Assembly: GCA_965197745.1 (NCBI GenBank)
Contig: CBDANS010000007.1
Coordinates: 224,001 to 288,000 of the forward strand
Reading direction: 5' to 3'
Origin: Opitutales bacterium
Lineage (GTDB): Bacteria; Verrucomicrobiota; Verrucomicrobiia; Opitutales; PNEW01
DNA length: 64,000 nt
The position numbers and the translations under genes were made by a program. This document shows, in pieces, positions 2,839 to 33,564 of this stretch (positions are counted from its first letter, which is position 1; each line of letters begins with the position of its first letter). The notes under the pieces are model-generated. The model saw nothing but the letters and a program-made list of their open reading frames with translations, was not told the origin of the DNA and searched no databases.

Positions 2839-2875
2839 AGATTTTAAAAATAATTGGGCTTATACCTGTATCGAG

Positions 2876-16474: not shown

Positions 16475-19400
16475 TTATATAGGGATATGCGTTTGTTTAT
16501 TATAGTCGCGAAAATCCACGCGGAAAAGAATAGCGTAGAGAACGGGAACAATCCCGAGGACGAGCAAAGTTGCGAACAATAATCCAAAAATAATCGCGGC
16601 TGCCATGGGTTGAAAAGTAGGGTTTCCTCTGAAGTATAGAGGGATAATACCGCCTATAGTCGTTATCGTAGTGAGGAGGATGGGGCGCACCCTGTTGAGT
16701 GACGCTTCGACGATGCTGTCCTGAGGCGAAAGTCCTCTCAAGTCGTTATTGATGCGGATACGGTCGATAAGAATGATCGCATTATTTACGACAATACCGA
16801 TGAGAGAGACTACGCCGACAAGAGTCATAAAGCCGAAAGGTTGTCGCGTAATTATTAAGCCGATTACGACACCGATGAGTCCCATCGGAACCGCGGACAT
16901 TATTATAAAAGTGCGCCGAAAAGATCGTGTCTGGCGTATGAGAAGAAGGACGATCAAAAAAGCGGTCCAGGGCAGCTTGTTGATAATAGACTTGTTGGCC
17001 CTTGCAGACTCCTCGCTCTCACCGCTAATGAGGATACTGTATTCATCTCCCCATGTATCTTTCTGCATTTTTATCCACTGCGTTAATTGTTTATCTATTT
17101 CTTTAGGATCGGCATTTTCTCGCAAGTCAGCTCGCACCGTAACCATTCGCTGATAATGTCGCCTGACGATTGAAATCGTCTCGCGGACTTCTTCTATTTC
17201 CGCTATGTCTCCAAGGGTAACGGTTGTCCCTGGTTTGATTCTTGAGTGAATATTCAGCGCTTTTATTTTTTCTATCTCGTTGTCACTGTCGACCATGGCG
17301 TGGACATTGATAGGGATAATCATGGTCCCATCGCGTATACTGTTAGCGGGGATGCCTGTGAGCAGGGATTGTAATGAAATCGCGACATCAAAGTGGGTGA
17401 TACGGGAGCGAAAAGCTTCCATTTCATTGATGACGACGCGGTATTTCTTTACCGGAGGCCCCCAATCATCATGTATATTGTAGATCCCTTGTAATGCGCC
17501 AAGTTTGTCTTTTACCTCATCGACAATATTGAACATCCCATCAATATCCTCTCCCAAGACACGAACTTTGATAGGATATCCAACGGTGGGGCCCGATTCC
17601 AGGGCACGGGCTCGAATTTGAGCCTCGGGTAATAAGGCAGTGCAATATTCCTCTATCTTATTGATCATCTCCGGGATCAGTTTAATCGACGTCAGGTTGA
17701 AGAGAAAGTAAGCATATTCGGGTTTACGTTCTACGGTTCGATGGTTAAGAATGAACCGTGGTGCATTTCTACCAATAAAAGTCGCCCAATTGGTAATACC
17801 TTGCCCGTCGTTTAAATCGGCGAGGAGATCTGATTCTACATAGGCGTCTATTGAACTTACAGCTTTATGTGTATATTCTATGTCTGTGCCCGCGGGAAAT
17901 TCAACTTCCAGGGTGATTATCGGTCTGTCCGAAGGAGGAAAAAATATTTTTGGGATATAGCGGAAACAATATAATGAACCCAAAAATAAAAGAAGGGTGA
18001 GGGTCACAACGAGAAAGGGACGGGGCAACATACAAAGGAGAATATGGTGATACCAACGGTAACCCGGTTTTTCCAATAATGTTTTCACTTTGTGCGGTTT
18101 AACTTTAAAAAGTGAAACTGAGAGTAAAGGGGTTAAAGTGAATGCGAATAAAGTTGAACAAAGAAGGGTTATCGCAACGACCGTAAAAAGAGATGAGACA
18201 TATTCCCCCGCGTTTGATTCTGCCAGATAGATGGGAAGAAATCCGGACAATGTGCTTAAGGCCGCCGTAATGAGAGGACTATGTAACTCTTGAGGCGATT
18301 TTTCAGCTGCAACCATGGGTGCTTCACCGCGTTCACGCAGGGTTATAATGCGCTCGGAGATGACAATATGCGTATCGACGATGATTCCGAAAACGAGAAT
18401 GAAAGCAGCAAGAGCGACAAGGTTTAAATTCATATTACAACCCAGCATTACGACGAGCGAGGAGAGAAAAGCCAACGGCATCATACTGGCAACAATCGAG
18501 CCGGTGCGCACACCGAGGGCAATCATAAGAATTAACATTACGATAACGAGACTTTGTGCGAGATTACCGAAAAAAGAGTTAATACGATTAGCCACACGCT
18601 CTGGTTCGAAGGCGATAAAGTCTAACTCCACACCATCCGGGACCTTGGCCGAAAAAGTTTTTATCAAGGCTTTAACTTCCTGCCCCATCTTTTCTATATT
18701 TCCGCCACTCTTCATGGAAACTGCGAGGCCCATGCAGCGTACCCCTGAAGATTTCATTATACTGTTCGGTGGTTGGTTCAGTTTACGGGTAACCTCAACC
18801 AGATCGCCAAGATAATAGGATTCTTCTTCATCGGGGAGGATAACTTCAAGATTCTGAATATCCTCTACAGATGTCAGCTCACTACTCAACTCCACGGGGT
18901 GCCTCAAATCCCCTTCCAGAATGCTTCCTCCTGGAGCTATCACATTCTGGGCTTCAAGATACATTTTCAATTGGTATGGGGATACTCCTGCCTCAGCCAT
19001 GTCGGTATCGTAAAAATCGACATATATTTTCTCTTCCTGGTCACCCAGGGAGATTACTTGAGATACATTACCGAGACGAAGTAATTTATCGTGGACCTCT
19101 TCGGTGAGTTTTTTTAATTTTGCATAGGTGATATCTTTTCCTGAAACGGTAACAATTGTGCCGTAAACCTCACCATACTCGTCGTTCAAAACAGGTTCCT
19201 GTACCCCTTCAGGCAAATCACTTTTTACCCGATCAATTTTGCGTTGTAACCGTGACCAGATAGGACGCATTTTCTGGTGGCGATCCGCTATTTTGACTAA
19301 AATTATCGAAGCATTTTTTCTTGAGATACTGTGCGCAAACTCCACTTCCGGCACTTCCCTTACCGCTTCTTCGATTTTCCGTGAAACCAAGCTCTCGACT

Positions 19401-19573
19401 CTTTGAGCTGATGCACCGGGATATATAGTGACAATTAAGGTGTATCGAAAGACGATTGGTGGGTCTTCAGTACGCGGCAACTGCATAAAAGCAATAATTC
19501 CCCCTATAAATAAAAAAAATGAGGTCAAAAGAGTGAATCTTGCCTCTTTCAGCGCAATAACCGTAAGTTTCAT
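16475..19573 (-). CDS. RND efflux transporter permease (AcrB/AcrD/AcrF family)
   Basis: YPGAS...VE, GIIVD in TM4, FFPPSD, GIVVNNAI, RVRPILLTT; about 1030 aa; start placed at ATG 19573. Confidence 0.92.
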   Translation of the reverse strand: MKLTVIALKEARFTLLTSFFLFIGGIIAFMQLPRTEDPPIVFRYTLIVTIYPGASAQRVESLVSRKIEEAVREVPEVEFAHSISRKNASIILVKIADRHQKMRPIWSRLQRKIDRVKSDLPEGVQEPVLNDEYGEVYGTIVTVSGKDITYAKLKKLTEEVHDKLLRLGNVSQVISLGDQEEKIYVDFYDTDMAEAGVSPYQLKMYLEAQNVIAPGGSILEGDLRHPVELSSELTSVEDIQNLEVILPDEEESYYLGDLVEVTRKLNQPPNSIMKSSGVRCMGLAVSMKSGGNIEKMGQEVKALIKTFSAKVPDGVELDFIAFEPERVANRINSFFGNLAQSLVIVMLILMIALGVRTGSIVASMMPLAFLSSLVVMLGCNMNLNLVALAAFILVFGIIVDTHIVISERIITLRERGEAPMVAAEKSPQELHSPLITAALSTLSGFLPIYLAESNAGEYVSSLFTVVAITLLCSTLFAFTLTPLLSVSLFKVKPHKVKTLLEKPGYRWYHHILLCMLPRPFLVVTLTLLLFLGSLYCFRYIPKIFFPPSDRPIITLEVEFPAGTDIEYTHKAVSSIDAYVESDLLADLNDGQGITNWATFIGRNAPRFILNHRTVERKPEYAYFLFNLTSIKLIPEMINKIEEYCTALLPEAQIRARALESGPTVGYPIKVRVLGEDIDGMFNIVDEVKDKLGALQGIYNIHDDWGPPVKKYRVVINEMEAFRSRITHFDVAISLQSLLTGIPANSIRDGTMIIPINVHAMVDSDNEIEKIKALNIHSRIKPGTTVTLGDIAEIEEVRETISIVRRHYQRMVTVRADLRENADPKEIDKQLTQWIKMQKDTWGDEYSILISGESEESARANKSIINKLPWTAFLIVLLLIRQTRSFRRTFIIMSAVPMGLIGVVIGLIITRQPFGFMTLVGVVSLIGIVVNNAIILIDRIRINNDLRGLSPQDSIVEASLNRVRPILLTTITTIGGIIPLYFRGNPTFQPMAAAIIFGLLFATLLVLGIVPVLYAILFRVDFRDYNKQTHIPI

Positions 19574-20321
19574 ATAATTGAATCCTGATGGAGAATAACC
19601 ATAATTGATTTTATTTCTTTTGGTAGATTTCCGATCCTCGGTCAATCCAACTTATACACCTTATTATTGCTTTGTTTGTCAGAAAGGCATCATTCTAACG
19701 GATTTTCTATCTTCTCCCTTTGCTTATTGACTGATAGCCTTATTTTTTCCAAAAATGGGCTTTAATTGTGTTTGGCAGTTATCTTAAATGATAAATGGTC
19801 ATAATATTCTTTAAAAATTAATAATGATTCTTATTGAATAATTATAAATTAGCTACATTAACGATGATCATCAGTAGAAATGTTTACCGGATATGTATAT
19901 CGATTTTGTTAACGGACAGAACCGATGGCGATTGTTGGTATCTAATTAACCTGCCAGAAATGGCATGAAATACCAGAGTGATTCTGCAGGTTCTTTTCGA
20001 GAGCTATAATAGTTTTCAGTATCCAATAAACGTCGAACTAAATTTTGAAAGATAAGTGAACAAACCCGGCCCGATGATCGTAATTGATCACCTGCACAAT
20101 CTTATTCCAAGAGACCTTCACTTGGATAGCTTTTTTATGATTAATAAAGCTGACACGAGAAGCATTTTGAGAACATCAATTCACAGTTTCTAATCTGAAT
20201 TTTTTATCATTTACCTAGACAAGAGAAGGGTCCAAAGCATTAAGATTAATTGAGAATTATAGTATGAAAATTGTGTATCGAATGCATGCTCTAGAGAAGA
20301 GCAGGCCTAGCTCTTTATTGT

Positions 20322-20327
20322 GGGAGG
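20322..20327 (+). promoter_or_regulatory. Shine-Dalgarno sequence of the PKS-NRPS gene
   Basis: GGGAGG lies 7 nt upstream of ATG 20335. Confidence 0.65.
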
Positions 20328-20334
20328 CAACCGA

Positions 20335-23300
20335 ATGATTAATCAAGGGAAGCGCCCCATAGCGATCATAGGAATAGGTTGCCGGTTTCCTGGTGGTGCA
20401 AAGAACTCAGCCTCTTTCTGGACCTCATTGCGCAATGGCCAGAATGCTATAGTCGAAGTTCCTGAGGATCGCTGGAATCTACAGCGATTTTATGATCCCA
20501 ATCCTCAATTGCCGGGTAAAATGACAACCCGTTGGGGGGGGTTCCTCGATACCATTGATCAGTTTGATGCTCAATTCTTTGGAATTTCGCCCCGCGAAGC
20601 ATTGAGGATGGATCCTCAGCAGAGATGGCTGCTGGAAGTGGCATGGGAGGCACTCGAAGATGGAGGATTAGCTCCCGATCAAGTAGCAGGGTCACGCACC
20701 GGTGTTTTTGTCGGCATTTCAAGCAATGATTATGCGAATATCCAAATGAAAGGGCCCCAGGATGTTGATATGTATACCAACAGTGGGAGCACCCTGAGCA
20801 TAGCTTCTGGCAGAATTTCTTATTTGTTTGATTTAAAGGGTCCAAGCCTGTCGGTTGATACCGCATGTTCATCGGCTCTTGTTGCCGTAAATCTTGCCTG
20901 CAATAGTATCTGGGATGGGCAGTGTGACACAGCTCTGGCAGGTGGAGTAAATGCACTGCTAACCCCTGATTCTTCTATAGGATTCAGCAAAGCGTCCATG
21001 CTGTCACCTGACGGCCGGTGTTACACCTTCGATGAACGGGCAAATGGTTATGTGCGTGGTGAAGGAGCGGGGTTAATCGTGCTCAAGCCGTTGGACGATG
21101 CACTGGAAGATGAAGATCCCATTTATGCCGTAATTCGCTCTAGCATTGTGAATCAAGATGGTCGCACGAGTTCAATGACGGTGCCGGGGCAATTTTCTCA
21201 GGAAGCTATGTTGAACGAAGCTTATGAACAAGCGGGAATCTCGCCGTCGAGAGTTTGTTACATAGAAGCGCATGGCACGGGAACACCGGTAGGGGACCCG
21301 ATTGAAGTTCTTGCCTTAGGGAATATTTTGTCCAAGGGAAGAAAAGCTGAAGATAAATGTGTAATTGGGTCGGTTAAAACGAATATTGGTCATTTAGAAT
21401 CTGCATCAGGTATAGCGGGTCTTATAAAAGCGGCACTGGTTCTAAAATATAAAGAGATTCCTCCTAATTTACATTTTGAAACCCCCAATCCCCATATTCC
21501 CTTTGAAAAACTTAAACTACGGGTTCCAACAAAGTTAGAGTCAATCCCGAAAGGATCAGACCCGGCGGTGGTCGCCGTTAACTCTTTTGGTTTTGGAGGC
21601 ACTAATGCCCATGTGGTATTAGAAGAAGCGCCGGTCATCGCTAAAAGACGGAAAAAAATAAATAAAGATGATGCCCCCAGGCCCTACCTTGTCCCTCTAT
21701 CGGGAAAAGGACAGCAGTCATTAAAAAAGAGTGCTGAGAATCTGGTTGATTTACTATCCGGACAATCGAATGGCACTGAAATATTCCTGCCTGATCTTGC
21801 CCACACGGCAAGCTTGCGCAAGGGGCACCATGACCATCGATTAGCACTCGTTGCGTGTTCGGAAAATGAAGTTATAGTAAAGCTTAATGGGTATCTTTCC
21901 GAGAATAAGGTGAAAGGCCTTGTTGAAGGAAGAGCAAAAACTGAAAATCAAAAAGAAATTGTTTTTATATTCACCGGTCAGGGTCCGCAATGGTGGGCGA
22001 TGGGGCGTGAACTTTTGGAAAAAGATCCGTTATTTCGTAAAAAGATAGAAAAGTGTGACAAACTGTTGAGCGAATACACCTCCTGGTCACTCGTTGAAGA
22101 ATTATCCCGAGATGAAGCCAGTTCCAGGATAGACGATACATCCGTTGCACAACCGGCGATTTTCGCTTTACAAATAGCCTTAGCTGATTGGTGGAAGGCG
22201 AGGGGCGTGTCCCCCACCTGTGTTATCGGGCATAGTGTAGGCGAGGTTGCTGCCGCTTACTGTTCCGGAATCTATACCCTCAACGATGCCATCAAGATAA
22301 TATATCACCGCAGTCACTTACAAGCAACAACGCGCGGCTCGGGACGTATGGTAGTGGTGGCCATTTCACCGGATAAAGCTAAGGCCTTAATTCAGGGGTT
22401 TGAAGATCAAGTGACGATTTCCGCGATCAACAGTCCGGGCCTTGTGACTTTAGCCGGAGATACAAAAGTTTTGGAATCAATAATCGAACCGCTTGAAAAA
22501 GATCAGGTATTTATCCGCTGGCTGGATGTCGATTATGCCTTCCATACAAATAAGATGGACCCTATTAAGGACGATTTACTTCAAGTCCTTTCAGAGATCA
22601 GACCACGCGCTTCAAAAATTCCCTATTACTCAACCGTCAGCGGAGAGGTTATGGACGGAAAGAAGTTAGACGCCAGCTATTGGTGGCGTAATATACGTGA
22701 AACCGTACTTTTTGGTCCGGCGATAGACGTTATTATTAGTAAGGATCACGACCTTTACCTGGAATTGGGCCCGCATCCTTCGCATTCCAGTTCTGTCTTA
22801 GAATGTCTGGCCCACAAAGGGAAGAATGGATCGGTTTTGCCCTCGTTGCGACGAAAAGAGTCGGATCAGCAGACTTTGCTTGAAACTCTAGCCACTTTAT
22901 ATACCCGGGGATATCCCATCCAATGGGATGCGCTCTATGGAAAGGAAGGACAATTTGTTCAATTGCCATCCTACCCCTGGAAGTCTGAACGACTATGGTT
23001 AGAATCACCCGTCTCTGAAGAGTACCGTTTTGGATCCATTGTGCATCCCCTCCTCGGGGAAAAAGTAAATGCTCCGAGCCCAACATGGGAATGCGAGCTT
23101 GATCCCCGCGCCTTACCCTACCTCGCCGATCACAGACTTCACGATTCCATGGTATTTCCAGGCGCCGCCTATGTTGAGATCGCGCTCGCGGCCCTTAATG
23201 AGCTATATCCCAATGAACCTTTTGTCATTGAAGATATCAAAATTCTTAAAGGGTTGTTCATGTCAGAAGACGGTGTCATTACCATTCAAATGGTCTGTGA

Positions 23301-26300
23301 TAAAACTGATGATTCCTTTAATATATTCAGTTCTACGGATACGACTGCTGGGGAATGGGAAATTCACGCCCAGGGACGCTATCAGAAATTAGCACCGCGT
23401 GATCCTGGCAATTTGGCTGTCGATCAAATTAAAGACGCGATGGAGGAGGAGATCGATCACGCCAAAATTTATTCAGATTTTGATGATGTTGGATATCAGT
23501 TCGGTCCCTGCTTCAGAGAAGTACAAAAAATCTGGAGAAAAGATGGGGAATCGTTGGCTGAGATTCAGGTAACAGACGCGGTTTTAGAAGATATGGAGTC
23601 AAACTTCTTTCAACCTGCAGTTTTGGATGCCTGCTTTCAAAGTGGCAAGGAATCCAGAGTTAAGGATGAAAACAGAAAGGCACGCGACAATTTTTATATG
23701 CCTATCGCTCTGAAAAGAGTGAGGTTCTTTAAAAGTCCGACTCCCCGTCTTTGGTGTTATACGCAATTAGTGAGCGACGAAGGAGACCGCGTTGAATATG
23801 ATCTTAAAGTCGCCAATGACGATGAATCTATCATCGCCGAGATCAAAGGCTTTTGCGTTCAGCGGGTAGATCAGTCTGAGACAAAAGCAGAAGAGGATCT
23901 CGAAAATTGCTATTATCAATTTCACTGGCATCCCTCATCGCTTCCCGGAGCGCGGCGTGACCCAATTGAACTCATAAGTCCCGAACGGCTTATAGAAGTA
24001 TTGGATCCTGAAATTATCCCTACCTACGATAAATATAATCTTGATGGTTACGTTAGTGATTTTATGCCTCAAATGGAAACTTTGAGCTTTAATTTCATTC
24101 TCACGGCTCTCCGAAAAATGGGATGGAAGCCGGCAATAGGTGATCGGGTATCGATTGACAGTTTAATCGAAGAATTGGGCATCATGGAGCAACATCACCG
24201 CTTATTGCAGCATTCCATATTTGAGACATTGAAAAAAGAAGCGGTGATTCAAGCGACCGAGGATGGAGAATGGGAAGTAGCCCGTACCCCTGATTCATTA
24301 AATTTAGAAGATCTATGCAGTGCCCTAAGAAATAACTTTCCTCACTTATGGGCGGAAATGGATTTGCTCATAGATTGTGGGTATGTTCTGGCAGAAGTGC
24401 TTACGGGTGAAAAAGATCCGCTCGATGTCATTTTTCCTGCCGGTGATCAGAAAAAAATTGAAAGTTTTTATAAGGATTCTTCTGACTTTCAGGCCTACAA
24501 CAGCTTGCTCCAAAAGGCCATCGACAAGCTTGCCAGTGAGCTGCCAGAAAAGGGCAAGCTGCGTATTCTGGAAATTGGAAGTGGCACCGGTTCTTTGACG
24601 GAAAGCTTGCTTGAAGTCTTATCCCCCGATCGTACCGAATATTACTTTACCGACATATCTCCCTTATTCATCGCATCGGCGAAAGAAAATTTTAAAAATT
24701 ATGATTTTATAGAATATAGTATTCTCGATATTGAGAAACCACCGGGAGAGCAGAAATTTGATCTCCAATCATACGATTTGGTTTTAGCTACGAATGTCCT
24801 GCACGCCACTAAAGATTTAAAGCAAACACTCCGTCATATTAATCAGCTGATGACGGAAGAAGGCCTTTTGCTATTTCTCGAAGTTACGACTAAAAGGTTA
24901 TTTTTGGATCTGGTTTTTGGTCTGCTTCCCGGCTGGTGGAGATATTCAGACGATGAATTGCGGACGACACATGCTTTGATTACTCGCCAGGAGTGGGAGG
25001 GGCTTCTTAATGAAAGTGGTTTTCGAAACGTAAATTCCTTTGTCAATACAATGGAGGAAAGCCACGCCAATCAATCCGTGTTCTTAGCCAACGCCTCCGA
25101 GCTTTTAACGGAGATGGATCGCAAAGAAGCCATCGATGAATCCTCAGATAAGAATAAAACCTGGTTGATTTTCGCTGATCAAAGCGGTTTTGCCGAGTCT
25201 CTAGTGAATCAAATGGAAGAGAGGGATAGCACATGTATCATGGTTACCCCGGGTGAATCCTTTGTCGAGGTGGGAGAACGCTGCTACCAGATTCATCCCG
25301 AACAATTGCAAGACATGGAGGATCTATTCACTCATCTCGAGCTTGATCCGAATGCCCTGCAAGGAATTATTCACATGTGGAGCCTTGACCATCCCACCGC
25401 TGATATAACAACACCTGAATCTCTCGAACTTGCTCAACAAACAGGATGCCTCAATGTTTTAAATCTCATTCAAACGCTTGTGAAATCAGAGCCCGATCCC
25501 GCACCACGGGTTTGGATGATCACGCACGGCATGCAGTTGGTTTCCGATACGGATAGAAACGAACGCATTGCTTCAGCTCCTTTAATCGGGCTCGCCCGGG
25601 TCGCCAATAATGAGCATTGGGATTATCACTGGACAGCTATTGATCTGGAATCTTCGAGCACTCCATTGGAATTAGAATTTTTAGTTAATGAGATCTGTTC
25701 TGCGGACGATGAATTGGAAATTGCTTACCGTGGAGGGGAGCGGTTTGTTAATCGAATAGAGAAAACGGTTAAGGATGAAATACCAGCAAGAACAAAAGAT
25801 GCGGTAAGACGTGATGGGGTAATTCCTTACCGACTCGAGATACCGACTCCCGGAATTCTTAATAATTTACGATTAAATGAGACAGAGCGCAGCGCGCCAG
25901 GACCTCAGGAAATAGAAATAAAAGTTGCTGCGGTCGGCCTGAACTTCCGTGACGTGATGAAAGTTTTAGGCATGTACCCGGGTAACAGCAGAGATTTGAA
26001 GTGGCTTGGGGACGAATGTTCGGGAACCGTTGTTTCTGTTGGTGAAGAAGTGAAAAATTTCCAGGTGGGTGATGAAGTTATAGGCATGATGGTTCCCTAT
26101 TGTTGTCGATCTTACGCCATCGTGAATGAGGCACTTGTTTTTCACAAACCTTCCAAGCAGTCATTCGAAGAGGCCGCGACCCTGCCGATTGTTTTCCTCA
26201 CCGCGCATTATACTTTGAACCATTTAGCCCACCTTCGTAAAGGTGAGAAAATATTAATACACGCGGGTGCAGGCGGTGTCGGCCAGGCTGCTATTCAAAT

Positions 26301-29300
26301 GGCTAAGCACATCGGGGCCGAGATTTTTGCAACCGCAGGTTCACCTGAAAAACGTGAGTTTCTTAAAAGCCAGGGAATAGCCCATGTCATGGACGACAGG
26401 ACATTGGATTTTGCTGATGAAGTCATGGAAATTACTGAAGGGAAAGGTGTCGATGTCGTATTGAACCAATTGGCTGGTGACTTTATCACGAAGAGTTTAT
26501 CGGTGCTCGCTCCCTTTGGAAGGTTTCTGGAAATCGGGAAAGTAGATATCTATCAAAACACAAAAATTGGGCTCGAACCATTTAAGAAGAACCTGACCTA
26601 TTTTGCCGTTGATCTTTCGAAACATATAGAAGAACGACCCGAGATAATTACCATGATGCTTCAAGAGTTATCGGTAATGTTTGAAAGAGAAGAGCTGAAG
26701 CCATTACCGTTTAAAGCATTTCCTATCACACAAGCAGTCGAGGCTTTCCGTTATTTTGCTCAATCGAAACACATCGGTAAAAATGTACTCTCACTGCAAG
26801 AGGATTCTATCCTTGTTGGCTTGCCTTCCGAGCAAAAAACACTGTTCCGTGCTGATGGAACATACCTTATCACCGGTGGATTAGGGGGATTCGGTCTGGA
26901 AGTTGCCAAGTGGATGGTAAAATCAGGGGCGAAAAATTTAGTCCTCATGGGACGTTCGGGTGCATCGACCGATGATGCCATGGAAGCTTTACAGACGATG
27001 CGAAATAACGGCGCCCAGGTGGTAGTGGCCAAAGCCGATGTAGTCATCCATGACGATGTAGAACGCGTCTTAAACAAGATCGATGAGGAAATGCCTCCTT
27101 TAAAGGGGGTCATTCATGCTGCTATGGTTTTGGATGATGGATTCCTTGTTCAGATAGACACTGAGAAATTCAAAAAGGTACTGCGTCCAAAAATGATAGG
27201 CGCCTGGCATTTACATCAGCTGACTCAGCAGATGCATATAGATTTCTTCGTGCTCTTTTCTTCTGCTTCGTCAATGCTTGGACCGAACGGACAGGGAAAC
27301 TATGCTTCGGCCAATTTCTTCCTGGATGCGCTCGCCCATTATCGCAATGCCATGGGTCTTCATGCCCTCACGGTCAACTGGGGTGCATTATCCGAAGCCG
27401 GATACGTGGCCCGGAATGAAAACGTTGCCAAGTATCTGGATATTCTGGGCCTGGAAAGTTTCACTCCGCAGGAAGCACTCAGCATTTTTGCTCAAATCCT
27501 GCCGAAAAATCCAGTTCAACTGGGAGCTTCCCATGTGAACTGGAAAACGATTTCAAAGATAAATCCACAGATGGGTAGTTCGAAGTTGTTCTCCCTGGTT
27601 ATAAGCCAGGATGCACTTTCAGAAAAGACCGGAGCCCACGCCCATTCATTCAGGCCTCAACTTCTTGGCGCTGCGCCTGAAGACCGGCATAAAATGGTAG
27701 AGAATTATATAAGTGAACAGGTAGCTCAAGTCTTTGGCACCTCAGCCGATAAAATTGATCGCGATACACCCCTGACCACGATTGGCCTCGATTCATTGAT
27801 GGCCATAGAGTTGATGAACCGCCTGGAATCTAATTTAGGAATTAATTTGCCCATGGGTAAATTCCTGCAAGGGCCGAATATTTCTCAACTTGCCATTCCC
27901 GTTCTCGAATTACTGGTTAAGTCTGATTCCGGTTCGGATACAGCGAGTTCGCCTCGAAATGTAACGGCGGGAGAAGAATTGATGGAGTTTCCCTTATCCC
28001 AGGGACAACGAGCGCTCTGGTTTTTACACCGCCTCGCGCCAAGCAGCGCTGCCTACAACCTGGTCTTCAGTTCGCGCATTACTCCTTATGTCGACATTGA
28101 CATTATGAAAAAGGCTTTTGCCCGTATCTTTCATTCCCATCCGATGCTCGACATTGTTATCTCCACGGTCGATGGAGAACCCATGCAGACATTGCAAAAA
28201 GGACGCAGTGTCGATTTTCGAGAACACGATGCAACCCAACTTAGCGATGATGAACTTAAGGCATTGCTCGTAGAGCACGCGCATAAACCCTTCAATCTTC
28301 AAACCGGCCCGGTTATCCGTTTGGAGCTGTTCCGTACTGCGACGGGGTCCCATGTGACGCAACTGGCTATGCACCACATTGTTTCCGATGCATGGTCTAT
28401 CGTGATTGTTCTCAACGAGCTCATGGAAACTTACTTGGCCATCAAGGCCGGTCGTGAGCCTGACGTTCAACCCCCTGAATTCAGGTATTCAGACTATGTA
28501 AACTGGCAGAAAAACCTCTTGCAAAGTCCTGAAGCTGATCGTTTGGGCAGTTATTGGTATGAATATCTCGCAGACTCATCGATGGTCCTTGATTTACCCA
28601 CGGACCACCCGCGTCCACCAGTCCAGTCTTTTAACGGCGCGACCTTTGGTTTCAAACTTGAAGAGGACCTTACGCAGAAGGTTTTGAAACTGGCTGAGGA
28701 GAAAAGAGTCACCCTTTATACTACCCTTCTGTCCGTATTTAATATTTTAATGCATCGTTATTGTAATCAAGAGGACATTATCATCGGGAGTCCTTTATCC
28801 GGACGTATAAATAAAGAATTTCATCATATTACCGGTTATTTTATCAATCCCGTTGCGTTGCGTAGCAGAATGGGTGATGACCCCGCTTATTTTGATTACC
28901 TGGATCGTGTCTATCAATCGGTAATTGGCGCTTTAGAAAATCAGGATTATCCATTTCCACTTCTTGTCGATCGACTTAAAGTAAAGCGTGATCCCAGTCG
29001 ATCGCCTATATTCCAGGCCAGCTTTTCTATGGAGAGAACACCTGGAGTTGATGATCAGGGCATAGCTGTATTTCTTATTGGTCAGGGCGGGCATAAATTT
29101 AATGCCGAAGACATGGTGATCGAGTCGATAGATCTTACTTTGCGCATGGCACAATTTGAGATTACACTCGTGGTGGAAGAAGCAGGGGGCAATATTTACG
29201 GCTGCTGGCAATATAACAGCGATCTGTTCGAGCCTGAAACGATTAGTCGTCTTAGCGGTTTTTATAAACAGTTGCTTAACGAAATCGTATCTCATCCTGA

Positions 29301-32300
29301 GAAAAAGATTTCCGAGTTTAATTTGCTTTCAGCGGATGAAGAAAAACAGGAAATAGTAGACTGGAACGCAACTGCCTCTAAATATCCTGAGCATTTATGC
29401 CTCCACCATATTATCTCTGACCAGTCAGCTAAAACACCCCATTCAACGGCGATCAGTTTCGATGGGGAATCCATGACTTATGAGGAATTGGAGAGAAAAT
29501 CAAACGGCCTGGCCCTAGCATTACATCAGAAAGGTATCGGTCCGGACACCCCCGTTGGGCTCTATCATGAACGGTCCATGAACATGGTTGTCGGGTTACT
29601 AGGTATACTTAAAGCTGGTGGTTGTTATGTGCCTCTGGATCCAGAATTCCCACCCCTCAGGCTGGAACAGATGCTCGACAATGCAAACCCATCTGTGGTG
29701 GTTACACAAAGCGAACTGGCGAGTGCCTTACCTCAAGGTCAATGGGAATCTATCTTTGTCGAAGAAGTGAGTGAGGCGGAGACAACACCTCAAGTCGATG
29801 GCCTGAATCCCGATTCGCTTGCTTATATTATTTATACATCCGGGTCTACAGGCGTGCCAAAGGGTGTGGAAATTTCCCATCAGTCTCTGGTTAACTTTTT
29901 ATATTCAATGCAGAGGGAGCCAGGTTTAAGTGATGAGGATAAACTTTTAGCAGTAACGACACTTTCTTTTGATATTTCAGGATTGGAACTCTACCTGCCA
30001 CTGATTTCCGGTGCTCAGGTTATTCTGGCCTCTCGTAAAGTCGCAGCTGATGGCAGACAGCTGGCAGCTCTCATAAAAAGCACCAATCCCACCATTATAC
30101 AGGCTACCCCGGCTACCTGGCAGATGTTACTGGATTCGGGCTGGTACGGAAAACAAAACCTTCGGATACTTTGTGGAGGTGAACCCCTACCACCGGATTT
30201 GGCGGAGCATTTATGTGAAATGGGTGCGGAAGTTTGGAATCTTTATGGTCCGACCGAAACAACCATCTGGTCTACGGCGTCACAAATTGAAAAAGGTGAT
30301 GATGTCGTCTCTATCGGCCGCCCCATCGCCAATACAAAAATATACATTTTAGATGAGGAAGAAAAACCCCTTCCCACGGGCTTTGCCGGCAATCTTTACA
30401 TTGGCGGTGACGGTCTGGCCCGAGGCTATCACAAACAACCTGAGCTCACTAAGGAATCATTTGTTGAGTTGTCGTTAAATCAGCAGGAAACTGAGCGCGT
30501 ATACAAAACCGGTGACTTAGCGCGCTATTTATCCGATGGCTCAATTGAATGCATTGGTCGCCGCGACTCTCAAATTAAACTGCGTGGTCACCGTATCGAG
30601 CTAAGTGAAATCGAAACGGTGCTTCGTGATCATCCCGCTGTAAAAAGTGCTTTGGTCCTGATGCGCAAAGATATGCCGGGAGGTCCGGGTATTGCCGCTT
30701 ATATTATACCCATGGAAAATAACGACAGATTAGTTCCGGATCTGCGATCACACCTCACTGAGCGCTTGCCTCAATATATGCAGCCTTCTGCTTATATGGT
30801 CCTCGATGAATTCCCGCTCACCCCCAATAATAAAATTGACCGCAATCATCTCCCGCTTCCCTCTTTAAAGCGTTCCGATTTGCGAACAGATTATTTGGCA
30901 CCCCAAACGCCGACTGAGAAGATTCTCTGTGATATATTAAATCAGGCTTTCAAGAGTGATAAGATTGGCATTCACGACAATTTCTTCGAGTTGGGTGGCG
31001 ATTCACTAATGGCGGTGGAAATATTGTCGAGTATCACTTCCGCTTTTAACCGTGAATTACCGATTGAGGTCTTTTTGCGCAATCCTACGGTGGAAAGTCT
31101 GGGCTATTATTTTGAACTCACTCCCGAAAATATTGAGGTGAATTCCTCCCCCCATAAGAATGGAGATTCAAAGGTTAATAACATTGATGACTTGTTTAAA
31201 AGCAGTTATCTGGATATCGAGCATGTAAATGGTAAAAATGGGGATCGCACTAAGTTCCCTGAGGTGGATGCCGTTGCTCTTGCTTACATCCCCGATGCTT
31301 TCCTCCCCCTCACGGGTCTTTCCAAAGATGAAATTTCACGTCAGTGGTTTCAACATCAGCCTTTTGTCAGCAATTACTACGAGACTCCATTTGGAAAAAT
31401 CGCTATCGTCATGTTACCGCGGTTAGGAGCTGAACTTTACAAAGATCAAGTGCCTCTCGGTGATAATATCTTAAGCTCCTTAAAATTGGCTGCCGATATG
31501 GGGGCCAGTACCGTATCCCTGACCGGCCTCATCCCCTCGGCTACTGACTATGGAAGAAGTATCTCACACTGGATAAACGGCCACGACAATTTACCCGCCA
31601 TAACTACGGGGCACGCCACAACCACAGCAACGATCGTGAAAACGATTACCGGTATGCTTGAGCAGACAATGCGTGACTTCAGTGAGGAAAAAATTGCCAT
31701 CGTCGGTTTGGGATCCATCGGCTATGCCACACTGCGACTTATGCTTGAAGTGATGCCGCATCCGGTTGAGCTTATCCTCTGTGATCTTTACCGAAAAGCG
31801 GACATTCTTGAGAATATTAGAAGTGAACTGATTGAAAAGGTTGGCTTTAAAGGAGCTATCCGTGTGGTGACAACGCGAGGCCAATTGCCCGACGCCATAT
31901 ACGATGCATCTTTTGTCCTTGGGGCCAGCAATGTTCCTGGTATCCTGGATATCAATCGCCTGCGTCCCGGCACCTTATTGGTAGACGATTCATTTCCACC
32001 TTGTTTCCGTCTCACCGATGCGATCAGACGAATTGAAGAAGAGCAGGACATTCTCTTTACAACCGGTGGGTTGTTGCGCTGTTCGGAAGAAATTAAAGAG
32101 ACTATATATCTGCCGGATGGAGCCGGTGAGTTATTCTCTAAATTAGGGGTTGATAAAGTGCAGAGACTGGCTGGACGCGACCCACGCGAAATCACGGGAT
32201 GTATCCTTTCCAGTCTCTTAACCGGACACGAACCGAATATTTCTACTACGATTGGACCAGTGGAAATCAAGGACTCACTCGCTCACTATAAACTTCTCGA

Positions 32301-32418
32301 AAAGTTGGGACTGGAGTCAGCAAGACCGCAATGTGAAGGCTTCTTTATCGATGACGTAATTATCGAACGATTCAAGAAACGCAACGGATCACATACCGTT
32401 CAGACTGAATCCGTTTGA
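20335..32418 (+). CDS. Hybrid highly reducing type I PKS-NRPS: KS-AT-DH-cMT-ER-KR-ACP-C-A-PCP plus acyl-ACP-reductase-like domain
   Basis: KS DTACSS/HGTGT/NIGHLE; AT GQG/GHSVG/YAFH; DH DHRLHDSMVFP and LDACFQ; cMT LEIGSGTG and NVLHAT; ER HAGAGGVG; KR TGGLGGFG/LDD/YASAN; ACP GLDSL; C HHIVSD; A YTSGSTGVPKG/YGPTE/YKTGD; PCP GGDSL; C-terminal Rossmann IAIVGLGSIG. Confidence 0.96.
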   Translation: MINQGKRPIAIIGIGCRFPGGAKNSASFWTSLRNGQNAIVEVPEDRWNLQRFYDPNPQLPGKMTTRWGGFLDTIDQFDAQFFGISPREALRMDPQQRWLLEVAWEALEDGGLAPDQVAGSRTGVFVGISSNDYANIQMKGPQDVDMYTNSGSTLSIASGRISYLFDLKGPSLSVDTACSSALVAVNLACNSIWDGQCDTALAGGVNALLTPDSSIGFSKASMLSPDGRCYTFDERANGYVRGEGAGLIVLKPLDDALEDEDPIYAVIRSSIVNQDGRTSSMTVPGQFSQEAMLNEAYEQAGISPSRVCYIEAHGTGTPVGDPIEVLALGNILSKGRKAEDKCVIGSVKTNIGHLESASGIAGLIKAALVLKYKEIPPNLHFETPNPHIPFEKLKLRVPTKLESIPKGSDPAVVAVNSFGFGGTNAHVVLEEAPVIAKRRKKINKDDAPRPYLVPLSGKGQQSLKKSAENLVDLLSGQSNGTEIFLPDLAHTASLRKGHHDHRLALVACSENEVIVKLNGYLSENKVKGLVEGRAKTENQKEIVFIFTGQGPQWWAMGRELLEKDPLFRKKIEKCDKLLSEYTSWSLVEELSRDEASSRIDDTSVAQPAIFALQIALADWWKARGVSPTCVIGHSVGEVAAAYCSGIYTLNDAIKIIYHRSHLQATTRGSGRMVVVAISPDKAKALIQGFEDQVTISAINSPGLVTLAGDTKVLESIIEPLEKDQVFIRWLDVDYAFHTNKMDPIKDDLLQVLSEIRPRASKIPYYSTVSGEVMDGKKLDASYWWRNIRETVLFGPAIDVIISKDHDLYLELGPHPSHSSSVLECLAHKGKNGSVLPSLRRKESDQQTLLETLATLYTRGYPIQWDALYGKEGQFVQLPSYPWKSERLWLESPVSEEYRFGSIVHPLLGEKVNAPSPTWECELDPRALPYLADHRLHDSMVFPGAAYVEIALAALNELYPNEPFVIEDIKILKGLFMSEDGVITIQMVCDKTDDSFNIFSSTDTTAGEWEIHAQGRYQKLAPRDPGNLAVDQIKDAMEEEIDHAKIYSDFDDVGYQFGPCFREVQKIWRKDGESLAEIQVTDAVLEDMESNFFQPAVLDACFQSGKESRVKDENRKARDNFYMPIALKRVRFFKSPTPRLWCYTQLVSDEGDRVEYDLKVANDDESIIAEIKGFCVQRVDQSETKAEEDLENCYYQFHWHPSSLPGARRDPIELISPERLIEVLDPEIIPTYDKYNLDGYVSDFMPQMETLSFNFILTALRKMGWKPAIGDRVSIDSLIEELGIMEQHHRLLQHSIFETLKKEAVIQATEDGEWEVARTPDSLNLEDLCSALRNNFPHLWAEMDLLIDCGYVLAEVLTGEKDPLDVIFPAGDQKKIESFYKDSSDFQAYNSLLQKAIDKLASELPEKGKLRILEIGSGTGSLTESLLEVLSPDRTEYYFTDISPLFIASAKENFKNYDFIEYSILDIEKPPGEQKFDLQSYDLVLATNVLHATKDLKQTLRHINQLMTEEGLLLFLEVTTKRLFLDLVFGLLPGWWRYSDDELRTTHALITRQEWEGLLNESGFRNVNSFVNTMEESHANQSVFLANASELLTEMDRKEAIDESSDKNKTWLIFADQSGFAESLVNQMEERDSTCIMVTPGESFVEVGERCYQIHPEQLQDMEDLFTHLELDPNALQGIIHMWSLDHPTADITTPESLELAQQTGCLNVLNLIQTLVKSEPDPAPRVWMITHGMQLVSDTDRNERIASAPLIGLARVANNEHWDYHWTAIDLESSSTPLELEFLVNEICSADDELEIAYRGGERFVNRIEKTVKDEIPARTKDAVRRDGVIPYRLEIPTPGILNNLRLNETERSAPGPQEIEIKVAAVGLNFRDVMKVLGMYPGNSRDLKWLGDECSGTVVSVGEEVKNFQVGDEVIGMMVPYCCRSYAIVNEALVFHKPSKQSFEEAATLPIVFLTAHYTLNHLAHLRKGEKILIHAGAGGVGQAAIQMAKHIGAEIFATAGSPEKREFLKSQGIAHVMDDRTLDFADEVMEITEGKGVDVVLNQLAGDFITKSLSVLAPFGRFLEIGKVDIYQNTKIGLEPFKKNLTYFAVDLSKHIEERPEIITMMLQELSVMFEREELKPLPFKAFPITQAVEAFRYFAQSKHIGKNVLSLQEDSILVGLPSEQKTLFRADGTYLITGGLGGFGLEVAKWMVKSGAKNLVLMGRSGASTDDAMEALQTMRNNGAQVVVAKADVVIHDDVERVLNKIDEEMPPLKGVIHAAMVLDDGFLVQIDTEKFKKVLRPKMIGAWHLHQLTQQMHIDFFVLFSSASSMLGPNGQGNYASANFFLDALAHYRNAMGLHALTVNWGALSEAGYVARNENVAKYLDILGLESFTPQEALSIFAQILPKNPVQLGASHVNWKTISKINPQMGSSKLFSLVISQDALSEKTGAHAHSFRPQLLGAAPEDRHKMVENYISEQVAQVFGTSADKIDRDTPLTTIGLDSLMAIELMNRLESNLGINLPMGKFLQGPNISQLAIPVLELLVKSDSGSDTASSPRNVTAGEELMEFPLSQGQRALWFLHRLAPSSAAYNLVFSSRITPYVDIDIMKKAFARIFHSHPMLDIVISTVDGEPMQTLQKGRSVDFREHDATQLSDDELKALLVEHAHKPFNLQTGPVIRLELFRTATGSHVTQLAMHHIVSDAWSIVIVLNELMETYLAIKAGREPDVQPPEFRYSDYVNWQKNLLQSPEADRLGSYWYEYLADSSMVLDLPTDHPRPPVQSFNGATFGFKLEEDLTQKVLKLAEEKRVTLYTTLLSVFNILMHRYCNQEDIIIGSPLSGRINKEFHHITGYFINPVALRSRMGDDPAYFDYLDRVYQSVIGALENQDYPFPLLVDRLKVKRDPSRSPIFQASFSMERTPGVDDQGIAVFLIGQGGHKFNAEDMVIESIDLTLRMAQFEITLVVEEAGGNIYGCWQYNSDLFEPETISRLSGFYKQLLNEIVSHPEKKISEFNLLSADEEKQEIVDWNATASKYPEHLCLHHIISDQSAKTPHSTAISFDGESMTYEELERKSNGLALALHQKGIGPDTPVGLYHERSMNMVVGLLGILKAGGCYVPLDPEFPPLRLEQMLDNANPSVVVTQSELASALPQGQWESIFVEEVSEAETTPQVDGLNPDSLAYIIYTSGSTGVPKGVEISHQSLVNFLYSMQREPGLSDEDKLLAVTTLSFDISGLELYLPLISGAQVILASRKVAADGRQLAALIKSTNPTIIQATPATWQMLLDSGWYGKQNLRILCGGEPLPPDLAEHLCEMGAEVWNLYGPTETTIWSTASQIEKGDDVVSIGRPIANTKIYILDEEEKPLPTGFAGNLYIGGDGLARGYHKQPELTKESFVELSLNQQETERVYKTGDLARYLSDGSIECIGRRDSQIKLRGHRIELSEIETVLRDHPAVKSALVLMRKDMPGGPGIAAYIIPMENNDRLVPDLRSHLTERLPQYMQPSAYMVLDEFPLTPNNKIDRNHLPLPSLKRSDLRTDYLAPQTPTEKILCDILNQAFKSDKIGIHDNFFELGGDSLMAVEILSSITSAFNRELPIEVFLRNPTVESLGYYFELTPENIEVNSSPHKNGDSKVNNIDDLFKSSYLDIEHVNGKNGDRTKFPEVDAVALAYIPDAFLPLTGLSKDEISRQWFQHQPFVSNYYETPFGKIAIVMLPRLGAELYKDQVPLGDNILSSLKLAADMGASTVSLTGLIPSATDYGRSISHWINGHDNLPAITTGHATTTATIVKTITGMLEQTMRDFSEEKIAIVGLGSIGYATLRLMLEVMPHPVELILCDLYRKADILENIRSELIEKVGFKGAIRVVTTRGQLPDAIYDASFVLGASNVPGILDINRLRPGTLLVDDSFPPCFRLTDAIRRIEEEQDILFTTGGLLRCSEEIKETIYLPDGAGELFSKLGVDKVQRLAGRDPREITGCILSSLLTGHEPNISTTIGPVEIKDSLAHYKLLEKLGLESARPQCEGFFIDDVIIERFKKRNGSHTVQTESV

Positions 32419-32442: not shown

Positions 32443-33564
32443 GTGGAGTCGACATTGCTGCATCCGTTGTGCGGAAGCAATCTGATTACATTTCTACGTG
32501 CTTTTGCCCGCCCGCGTCCTCTTTGTTGGCAAAAGCTGCCTGTGGGGTTTATCGCGGCAGCATCAGTTTTGGGACGATTTCCCTTTTATCAGTTCGAACG
32601 CTTATCACAAGCACGTGCTATTATACAAACCCCATTACCAGCGGAACCCATTTTTATCATTGGACACTGGCGTAGCGGCACGACACACCTGCACAATCTC
32701 ATCAGTCAGGATTCACAATTTGGATCGATCAGTTTCCTTCAAACTGCATTGCCCTGGGACTTTATCGGCCAGGTCAATTTATCTCAGAAAATTCTCCGTA
32801 AGAAACTCCCCGACGATCGGGGGATGGACAAGGTAAAACTGACAATCGATTCCCCACAAGAAGAAGAGATGGCTCTGGGAAATATGGGTCCACTATGTTA
32901 TTATTACTGTTATTATTTTCCCCGGGAAATTGAAGAACACTTTAATCGGGCGGTCCTATTCAACGGAGTCTCATCAAGCGAAATAAAAAACTTTGAAAAT
33001 AATTACTGCTATCTTTTAAAAAAACTGACCCTGTTTCATGGAGATAAGAAAAAGCTGCTTTTAAAAAATCCCGCAAACACCGGTCGCATACGTTGGCTGC
33101 GGAGTATTTTTCCAGGCGCTAAGTTCATTCATATTCATCGCAATCCTTACACGGTCTATGCCTCAACCCTAAAGCATTTTAATAGAACCATGACGACTTT
33201 CGCCTGGCAGCCCTATGAGGGAATTGACTTTAATAAAATTACCCTGCGTCACTATCGCCTTCTCATGCAGCGTTACTTGGATGAGCGATCAACTATCCCC
33301 CCGGAAAACTTAATTGAGGTATCTATGGATGAAGTAGAGAAAGATGCGCCCGGGGTGATCGATAACATATACCGAAAATTTTCTTTGTCCAATCGGGATA
33401 GGGCGCTTGAAGCAATTAATTCATACTGCGAAGGACAGCGAAATTACCGTAAGAACAGTTATGTATTAAGCGGGGATCAAGTTGCTAATATAAATAAACA
33501 CTGGGACTTTACGTTGAAAGAATATGATTACGGAATGCCGGGTGAAATAAAGGTGGAAAACTGA
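32443..33564 (+). CDS. PAPS-dependent sulfotransferase
   Basis: 5'-PSB motif IGHWRSGTTHL, PQEEE, LLKNP, 3'-PB motif IHRNP...S; starts 24 nt after the PKS-NRPS stop. Confidence 0.88.
   Translation: MESTLLHPLCGSNLITFLRAFARPRPLCWQKLPVGFIAAASVLGRFPFYQFERLSQARAIIQTPLPAEPIFIIGHWRSGTTHLHNLISQDSQFGSISFLQTALPWDFIGQVNLSQKILRKKLPDDRGMDKVKLTIDSPQEEEMALGNMGPLCYYYCYYFPREIEEHFNRAVLFNGVSSSEIKNFENNYCYLLKKLTLFHGDKKKLLLKNPANTGRIRWLRSIFPGAKFIHIHRNPYTVYASTLKHFNRTMTTFAWQPYEGIDFNKITLRHYRLLMQRYLDERSTIPPENLIEVSMDEVEKDAPGVIDNIYRKFSLSNRDRALEAINSYCEGQRNYRKNSYVLSGDQVANINKHWDFTLKEYDYGMPGEIKVEN

Follow-up and report, generated by a model that had tools for sequence, protein, structure and literature searches.

Results

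Organization of the locus

A hybrid polyketide synthase–non-ribosomal peptide synthetase (PKS-NRPS) gene, here the megasynthase gene, was analysed together with the RND permease and sulfotransferase genes that flank it. The three genes lie in a 64,000-nucleotide stretch of the Opitutales bacterium assembly GCA_965197745.1 (contig CBDANS010000007.1, positions 224,001 to 288,000, forward strand), hereafter the window, to which all positions refer. The megasynthase gene is an uninterrupted open reading frame (ORF) on the plus strand, running from a GTG at 20320 or an ATG at 20335 to the stop at 32418. The ATG at 20335 is preceded by GGGAGG at 7 nt, and the database copy P0002 (4,027 aa) has the same start. 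The features of the locus were as follows.

16475..19645, minus strand: RND (AcrB-type) permease, divergent from the megasynthase gene; PF00873 8.5e-135, 451 bits, profile positions 5-1020 of 1021
19646..20334, no strand: AT-rich intergenic region, 689 nt between the divergent RND and megasynthase genes
20335..32418, plus strand: megasynthase gene, 4,027 aa, KS-AT-DH-cMT-ER-KR-ACP-C-A-T-TAD
20353..21624, plus strand: ketosynthase (KS); PF00109 2.8e-100, PF02801 1.4e-39; active-site Cys178, HGTG and the His of NIGH
21961..22908, plus strand: acyltransferase (AT); PF00698 1.3e-72; GHSVG, YAFH at residues 734-737
23044..23880, plus strand: dehydratase (DH); PF21089 and PF14765; motifs HRLHDSMVFPG and LDACFQ
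24505..25032, plus strand: C-methyltransferase (cMT); PF08242 1.7e-19, PF13489 1.6e-16; S-adenosylmethionine (SAM) motif ILEIGSGTG, His of NVLHAT, Glu of LEVT
25900..26790, plus strand: enoylreductase (ER); PF08240, PF00107, PF13602; nucleotide motif LIHAGAGGVG intact
26857..27393, plus strand: ketoreductase (KR); PF08659 1.5e-68; GGLGGFG, LDD, YASAN
27706..27894, plus strand: acyl carrier protein (ACP); PF00550, PF23297; GLDSL, Ser2487
27985..29349, plus strand: condensation (C) domain; PF00668 2.1e-102; HHIVSD
29419..30834, plus strand: adenylation (A) domain; PF00501 1.9e-87, TIGR01733 9e-129
30907..31104, plus strand: thiolation (T) domain or peptidyl carrier protein (PCP); second PF00550 stretch; GGDSL, Ser3557
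31252..32394, plus strand: terminal domain of the terminal amidation domain (TAD) family; acyl-ACP-reductase-like fold by homology; PDB 9e4s/9e4x, E 8e-89
32443..33564, plus strand: stand-alone sulfotransferase of the 3'-phosphoadenosine-5'-phosphosulfate (PAPS) type, 24 nt after the megasynthase stop; PF13469 1.4e-29, 104 bits vs a cut-off of 27

Domain composition of the megasynthase

Pfam placed the KS at residues 7-382, AT 543-858, DH 904-1182, methyltransferase 1391-1566, ER 1856-2152, KR 2175-2353, ACP 2458-2520, C 2551-3005 and A 3029-3500, followed by a second PP-binding domain; E-values ranged from 1e-102 to 1e-11. The features of a type I PKS-NRPS hybrid (the KS Cys-His-His triad, read as DTACSS, HGTG and NIGH, GHSxG of the AT, carrier serines, HHxxxD and the A motifs) were all found on one polypeptide. 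One complete reducing PKS module with cMT and ER followed by one NRPS module, as described in the initial annotation from the sequence, was borne out by both Pfam and motifs.

Homologues were taken from the 120 best matches of a word-indexed search, 95 of which were proteins of 3,862-4,100 aa with the same architecture, 47-78% identity and 95-100% query coverage (97-100% except P0021). All named homologues were proteins of Verrucomicrobiota metagenome-assembled genomes (MAGs), and one genome contig named 'MAG: Opitutales bacterium' matched at 87%, in agreement with the earlier placement of the gene in a lineage with few characterized products. All the catalytic motifs sought were present in the megasynthase and conserved across these 95 full-length homologues. 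The cMT His was kept in 95/95 and the Glu in 94/95, and both the cMT and the ER look active. The YAFH motif of the AT, which indicates malonyl-CoA specificity, was retained in 93 of the 95 (FAFH in the other two). The AT motifs fit malonyl-CoA, as had been suggested earlier from YAFH. The KS Cys lay at residue 175-185 in 88/95 homologues, and the lack of a loading or docking region, which had been noticed in the query and is confirmed by a KS starting at residue 7, is therefore a trait of the family. No other PKS, thioesterase (TE) or phosphopantetheinyl transferase (PPTase) was detected by Pfam among the window ORFs scanned, as previously noted. The single PPTase of the genome was Sfp-type (4PPT_N and ACPS) and located 1.58 Mb away (G000 C7:1833899-1834570).

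The terminal domain is a TAD homologue

The initial annotation had ended the protein with a reductase (R) domain. This was not upheld. The last 432 aa had no significant Pfam match (best E 0.17), with neither PF07993 nor a short-chain dehydrogenase/reductase (SDR) family detected. In NCBIfam this region matched the thioester-reductase part of PigE (4e-12) and acyl-ACP reductase (AAR, TIGR04058; E 3.5e-4), the latter with 20 bits against a cut-off of 449.7 and thus below membership. Among solved structures, PDB 9e4s/9e4x ('Amino acid adenylation domain protein') matched residues 45-425 of the 432 with E 8e-89, about half of the aligned residues being identical as read off the alignment, not computed.

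In 9e4s the spacing from TTG to GxGxxG to Asp equals that of the numbering given for CarI (2042-2044, 2076-2081 and 2102) in a preprint on its 'putative terminal amidation domain' (Rankin et al., bioRxiv 10.1101/2024.10.28.620694). The text of that preprint gives no PDB codes, and 9e4s/9e4x were equated with the CarI TAD through this motif spacing. The TAD of CarI has an AAR-like two-lobed fold, binds NAD(H) and not NADP(H), and holds an invariant Cys beside the nicotinamide and within reach of the PCP arm; such domains stand at the end of the pathways to the primary amides carmabin, vatiamide and hectoramide (bioRxiv 10.1101/2024.10.28.620694).

In the megasynthase the domain lies directly C-terminal of the T domain and carries TTGH (3757-3760), GLGSIG (3791-3796), the NAD-selecting Asp3817, a VDDSFP loop (3883-3888) and Cys3956, so that the residues typical of the family (Cys, Thr-Thr-Gly, GxGxxG and the NAD-selecting Asp) are all present. 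The loop reads Asp-Asp-Ser-Phe-Pro, with both Asp kept and Phe in place of Gly, as in 95/96 megasynthase TADs. Among TADs from other proteins, the Cys was found in 145/146 and the Gly of TTG in 146/146. On homology and motifs, the last ~390 aa are a TAD homologue and not an SDR-type R domain.

With an E-value limit of 1e-3, an exhaustive profile search with the TAD only retrieved 901 proteins, of which 478 were within 1e-30; in most cases the domain was C-terminal on NRPS modules; the preprint lists 757 TAD homologues (bioRxiv 10.1101/2024.10.28.620694). Fifteen other TAD proteins were analysed with Pfam. A TE was present in the same polypeptide, before or after the TAD, in three of them and an SDR reductase in one (P0218), and the NRPS module bore a PilZ insertion in one (P0133) and an FkbM methyltransferase insertion in another (P0137). 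The proteins with unusual TAD company were P0152, P0185, P0234, P0218, P0133 and P0137.

Phylogeny of the TAD and release domains of related proteins

In a FastTree phylogeny of 242 TADs, those of the megasynthases formed one clade of 97 tips with a support of 0.99. Within it, 15 tips, including the query, had Asp at the position of CarI-2170 and His after TTG, and the other 82 had Tyr at that position and Asp or Asn after TTG. The outgroup TADs were Asp/His, so the subclade of the query keeps the ancestral, CarI-like active site. The coupled change of Asp to Tyr and of His to Asp/Asn was observed in ~80 of the 95 megasynthase homologues (P0016-P0099). The preprint describes a mostly verrucomicrobial TAD cluster with an invariant Tyr for Asp2170 (bioRxiv 10.1101/2024.10.28.620694), and the Tyr group matches this description.

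The nearest outgroup consisted of stand-alone KS-AT-DH-ER-KR-ACP-TAD proteins of ~2,530 aa without an NRPS module (loci L077, L082, L085 and L089, and the shorter L064, L087, L088, L090, L093 and L094). Their KS was 57-59% identical to that of the query and their TAD loop was VDDSYPP. The TAD of these sister proteins directly follows an ACP of fatty-acyl type, and AAR acts on this class of substrate. The flanking genes differed between loci: a fatty-acid desaturase with FtsX and a LolA-like protein at one locus, and an Asp/Asn beta-hydroxylase at another.

The KS-AT-DH-cMT-ER-KR-ACP-C-A-T chassis was also found with the TAD replaced by an SDR R domain (P0103) or by a TE (P0108, P0109, P0111 and P0118), in proteins with 46-49% identity over 89% of the query. 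On this conserved single-module hybrid, one release domain has thus been exchanged for another.

Co-inheritance with a sulfotransferase and an RND permease

The presence of the three genes was determined in 301 genomes of the order, with orthologues taken at >=49% identity (at least). The TAD megasynthase was present in 16/301. Excluding the query genome, its families were all-or-none (3/3, 1/1, 9/9 and 2/2 genomes), and it was found in none of the other families. Orthologues of the sulfotransferase (49-71% identity) were restricted to the same 16 genomes, paralogues of 30-37% identity occurring elsewhere in 11 genomes. RND orthologues (49-75% identity) had the same distribution, with best matches elsewhere of <=40%. 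The sulfotransferase adjoined the megasynthase in 15/16 genomes and was retained ~510 kb away in the exception, G057; the RND gene was adjacent and divergent in 14/16, and a contig break occurred in the other two. Adjacency of the sulfotransferase was also seen in 4/4 family loci from metagenomes; the patterns of that scan fitted only Asp-type loops and yielded these four among 78 loci and no Tyr-type member. The megasynthase, sulfotransferase and RND permease are therefore co-inherited in four families, all of the same verrucomicrobial order. Fixation in whole families and absence from neighbouring ones is more readily expected of a structural or surface lipid than of an antibiotic of sporadic occurrence.

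The sulfotransferase showed both the family match and a 5'-phosphosulfate-binding loop, with a P-loop-like GHWRSGTT aligned to the loop of PDB 2zq5 (8e-9). The nearest solved chains were 2zq5 and 2z6v, which we take to be the mycobacterial Stf1 and Stf9. The RND permease also matched NCBIfam RND_permease_2 (1.5e-117), under its cut-off, and no gene for a membrane-fusion or outer-membrane partner was located beside it. The intergenic region 19646..20334 presumably holds the promoters of both divergent genes. Four promoter-like sites were counted there vs 3.8 expected from shuffles, which is uninformative, and no Rfam match was obtained at E <= 0.1.

In G057 (C3:436274-439330 and C3:1382346-1383434) the cassette is rearranged and not lost, and a second RND copy with 47% identity lies far from the cluster.

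Affiliation of the PKS part

The KS-AT region was scored against solved chains. The highest scores were those of bacterial enzymes, namely CurL (739 bits), PikA1 (714), DEBS (657) and MAS (653), followed by LovB (517), the fungal PKS-NRPS PsoA (489) and animal fatty acid synthase (~375). As a ranking of scores against solved chains only, this is neither a phylogeny nor a test of iteration. Reducing type I PKS modules generally show the order DH-cMT-ER-KR. Of the traits of fungal highly reducing (HR) PKS-NRPSs, the domain order was found, and neither an SDR R/Dieckmann terminus nor a KS-AT closest to fungal enzymes. The label 'fungal-style' given at first to the architecture holds for layout and not for descent, as by its sequence the PKS is of bacterial cis-AT stock.

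Specificity of the adenylation domain

The A-domain code, hand-read from the A4-A5 motifs, was D-I-L-Q-I-C-L-I-W-K. Of its residues, D, I, L, Q and W did not vary among the 95 homologues; position 330 was V or I in all, 299 was I/V in 88, 301 was C in 88 and S in seven, and 322 was L in 92. The code DILQLGMIWK is reported for Gly-activating domains (PMC12283262). The best single-domain PDB matches of the A domain were 5u89 (440 bits) and 4zxh (386 bits). Both structures are, we assume, glycine-activating. In an alignment with LgrA, the Gly module scored 305 bits vs 299 for the Val module, with no discrimination between them. Glycine is the likely substrate as judged from the code and the PDB matches.

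Candidate partners elsewhere in the genome

A second reducing PKS was detected on contig C5 (G000 C5:309807-317747, L039 4808-12748), with KS-AT-DH-ER-KR-ACP and without a cMT. It was considered as an obligate partner module and rejected, since it is not co-distributed with the megasynthase: it was unmatched in three of the five carrier genomes tested (G060, G017 and G051), which include the 98%-complete, single-contig G017 and a member of the family of the query. The megasynthase had originally been described as a stand-alone module, and the lack of a co-conserved partner PKS module supports this. A fatty acyl-AMP ligase (FAAL)-type domain (PF23024) was not found in the 92%-complete genome, a search that gave matches in control genomes. 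Neither FAAL, loading ACP nor acyl-CoA ligase was co-conserved beside the gene in 10 downstream and 8 upstream neighbourhoods.

Proposed pathway

The three genes probably form a lipid cassette of RND exporter, megasynthase and sulfotransferase, whose exported product would be a methyl-branched, sulfated lipid derived from acyl-glycine. We favour this reading with reasonable, not high, confidence. It retains the acyl chain joined to an amino acid that was proposed at first, and the co-inherited sulfotransferase and RND permease add the predicted sulfation and export.

The ACP and PCP would be primed by the Sfp-type PPTase. The KS would take either a small primer or an acyl-thioester of the cell as its starter and would most likely carry out several malonyl extensions; several rounds are suggested by the fact that nothing able to load a long primer is conserved with the megasynthase, and iterative use of the PKS module is considered slightly the better choice. 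Reduction by KR, DH and ER and SAM-dependent alpha-methylation would give a methyl-branched, largely saturated acyl-ACP, whose chain the C domain would amidate onto glycyl-S-PCP. The acyl-glycyl chain may then be transferred to Cys3956 of the TAD and released in an NAD-dependent reaction. For this step a primary amide is the most likely outcome, on the homology with CarI and because the clade of the query keeps the CarI active-site residues, and it is proposed tentatively, with a likelihood a little short of even. The sulfotransferase would transfer sulfate from PAPS to a hydroxyl of the product (less likely to nitrogen), and the RND pump would extract the resulting anionic lipid from the cytoplasmic membrane. 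Iterative use, the chemistry at the C-terminus (an amide, or an aldehyde or alcohol) and the place of sulfation are all inferred.

Several observations weigh against this pathway or parts of it. The product is read from the genes. The authors of the CarI study could not reconstitute TAD activity, as neither NAD(H) nor ammonia nor any of the amino acids brought about release (bioRxiv 10.1101/2024.10.28.620694), and amide formation by the TAD therefore rests on correlation. A TE (3/15) or an SDR (1/15) co-occurs with the TAD in other proteins, so it need not be the sole release catalyst. A fully reduced acyl-glycinamide has no obvious hydroxyl for the sulfotransferase, which favours a retained hydroxyl or a reduced C-terminus. 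Iteration is unsupported by similarity, as the KS-AT most resembles modular, once-acting PKSs. The glycine prediction faces Cys/Ser at code position 301, vs Gly in known glycine codes. Finally, samples of the class and of the phylum, 401 genomes each, contained no carriers other than the query genome.

Alternative explanations

A serious rival, although judged the less probable, is reductive release, in which the TAD would reduce the acyl-glycyl thioester on Cys3956 to an N-acyl-aminoacetaldehyde and then an N-acyl-ethanolamine, to be converted into an O-sulfate ester. It is serious because it supplies the acceptor of the sulfotransferase: the primary alcohol would be an obvious target for an enzyme co-inherited in 16/16 genomes, and the amide model has none. 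The fold and catalytic Cys are common to TAD and AAR, the matches of the terminal domain to PigE (4e-12) and AAR (3.5e-4) point in the same direction, and PigE reduces a thioester (PMC8341465). A reduce-then-reoxidise route is among the options listed in the preprint itself (bioRxiv 10.1101/2024.10.28.620694). However, the CarI TAD is NAD-specific and the authors read the Asp stacked on its nicotinamide as favouring NAD+ (bioRxiv 10.1101/2024.10.28.620694); the clade of the query keeps that Asp. The three known TAD pathways finish in amides and not in aldehydes, and AAR stops at the aldehyde, a second reduction requiring another enzyme, none of which is co-conserved. This reading comes close to the R domain first proposed, with a different enzyme family.

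About as unlikely is a non-iterative tailoring role, with the KS taking a ready-made fatty acyl-ACP or acyl-CoA and adding one C2 unit and a 2-methyl branch before glycine incorporation, release, sulfation and export. The closeness of the KS-AT to once-acting modular PKSs (CurL 739 bits, PikA1 714, DEBS 657) would fit, and after a single round with one cMT the product would be a 2-methylacyl amide, a chemically simple compound. Long-chain primers are used by MAS-type enzymes, in which the KS likewise comes first. Against it stand the lack of a co-conserved FAAL, loading ACP or acyl-CoA ligase beside the gene and of PF23024 in the genome, the family-wide absence of an N-terminal docking or carrier domain, and the nearest sister proteins (~2,530 aa, KS-AT-DH-ER-KR-ACP-TAD), which look like self-sufficient chain builders.

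Doubtful, and distinctly less probable than either of these, is a combined form in which a truly iterative HR C-methylating PKS-NRPS builds de novo a lineage-defining, sulfated lipo-glycine envelope lipid with a TAD that is reductive and not amidating. If true, a reductive TAD would overturn the sole proposed function of a family with hundreds of members.

An ordinary accessory cluster making an unsulfated acyl-amino acid beside unrelated sulfotransferase and RND genes is very improbable, for although sulfotransferase paralogues (30-37% identity) occur in 11 genomes without the megasynthase and RND pumps are common with many paralogues, the orthologues of both are found in exactly the 16/301 carriers, all four families have the same gene order although other neighbours change, and the sulfotransferase was relocated yet retained in G057.

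Comparison with known systems

The sulfated acyl-glycine lipid cassette proposed here combines parts of known kinds, and the TAD family, including its verrucomicrobial cluster, is already in print. The closest systems are CarI, VatR and HcaD of the carmabin, vatiamide and hectoramide pathways (PDB 9e4s, 9e4u, 9e4x, 9e50 and 9e56). They share with the query a C-A-PCP module followed by a ~390-aa terminal domain without a Pfam family, as well as the motifs TTG and GxGxxG, the Asp that selects NAD, an Asp-Asp-Ser loop and the catalytic Cys. In contrast, this module is joined in the query to a complete reducing PKS module within a single polypeptide and is predicted to activate glycine, whereas CarI-type modules activate a methylated aromatic or aliphatic residue; the loop is DDSFP here and DDSGP in the CarI type. 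The query subclade keeps the Asp that is Tyr in the verrucomicrobial cluster of the preprint. The constant sulfotransferase and RND partners are a further difference, the word 'sulfotransferase' being absent from the main text of the preprint (bioRxiv 10.1101/2024.10.28.620694).

AAR and PigE/TamH resemble the TAD in the two-lobed fold, the Cys acyl-enzyme beside the nicotinamide and the carrier-bound thioester substrate (bioRxiv 10.1101/2024.10.28.620694; PMC8341465; PMC9594044). They differ in their weak sequence similarity to the query (AAR 20 bits vs a cut-off of 450; PigE 4e-12). AAR is free-standing and uses NADPH, while the TAD is fused, NAD-specific and tied to amide products.

Fungal PKS-NRPSs (PsoA, and LovB-type HR-PKSs) have the same order KS-AT-DH-cMT-ER-KR-ACP-C-A-T in a single module without a loading domain. 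Their KS-AT scores were lower (489-517 bits vs 653-739 to bacterial PKSs), and the query has an intact, not degenerate, ER motif and a TAD instead of an SDR R domain or a Dieckmann cyclase. If the PKS is iterative, it would parallel in bacteria the programming of fungal HR-PKS-NRPSs, with an active ER and cMT. Bacterial hybrids that act iteratively have an accepted precedent in the PKS-NRPSs that make polycyclic tetramate macrolactams (HSAF and ikarugamycin type), each by description likewise a stand-alone bacterial single-module PKS with one NRPS module. Unlike the query, these synthases are without cMT and ER, use ornithine and end in a TE.

The mycobacterial sulfolipid-1 system comprises Pks2, MmpL8 and the sulfotransferase Stf0, a set with the same logic: a MAS-like reducing PKS for methyl-branched chains, a sulfate-transferring enzyme and a lipid exporter of the RND superfamily. 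Pks2 was the top NCBIfam match of the megasynthase (1,376 bits, under the cut-off of 2,400). However, the methyls of the query would derive from SAM via the cMT and not from methylmalonyl-CoA, its chain would be joined to glycine by an NRPS module and not to trehalose by acyltransferases, and its pump is AcrB-type and not MmpL; homology of the whole pathway is not implied.

The literature searches found no paper that deals with the megasynthase, with its product or with the partner sulfotransferase and RND permease, nor a characterized product in print, and for 'terminal amidation domain' only bioRxiv 10.1101/2024.10.28.620694 was retrieved. The accessible part of a squid-symbiosis preprint mentions hybrid T1PKS-NRPS expression in general terms only. 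The predicted substrate of the TAD is here a simple acyl-glycyl thioester, easy to synthesize, and the obligate sulfotransferase limits the possible product structures; for both reasons the system could make the function of the TAD directly testable. The product is also a candidate surface or structural lipid in a phylum with barely known lipids and natural products.

Other genomic features

Other neighbours of the cassette were family-specific or housekeeping genes, among them acetyl-CoA synthetase, DAO oxidoreductase, TrpRS, glycosyltransferase, NUDIX, MiaB-like protein, SNF symporter and LptF/G. Cassette membership was considered for the MiaB-like, SNF symporter and LptF/G genes, which appear repeatedly in some families, and rejected because they represent housekeeping synteny.

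The PKS on contig C5 is split inside the AT into ORFs of 607 aa and 1,516 aa and is followed by a 511-aa protein without a Pfam family. Such a pair, with the 511-aa protein adjacent, recurs in G012, and weaker matches (32% and 42%), far apart, were found in G057; like the PKS, the 511-aa protein was not detected in G060, G017 and G051. Upstream of the split PKS, a TonB-dependent receptor is likewise divided into two ORFs (Plug, 217 aa; barrel, 498 aa; G000 C5:307225-309432, L039 2226-4433). Two split genes in 5 kb suggest either real decay or a locally poor assembly.

Within the window, the ORF of the DAO-family FAD oxidoreductase (35640-37205, minus strand) overlaps that of a DnaJ-like protein (37111-38070, minus strand) by 95 nt. 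Its orthologue in G060 has 488 aa vs 521 aa here, and its true start is therefore probably further in.

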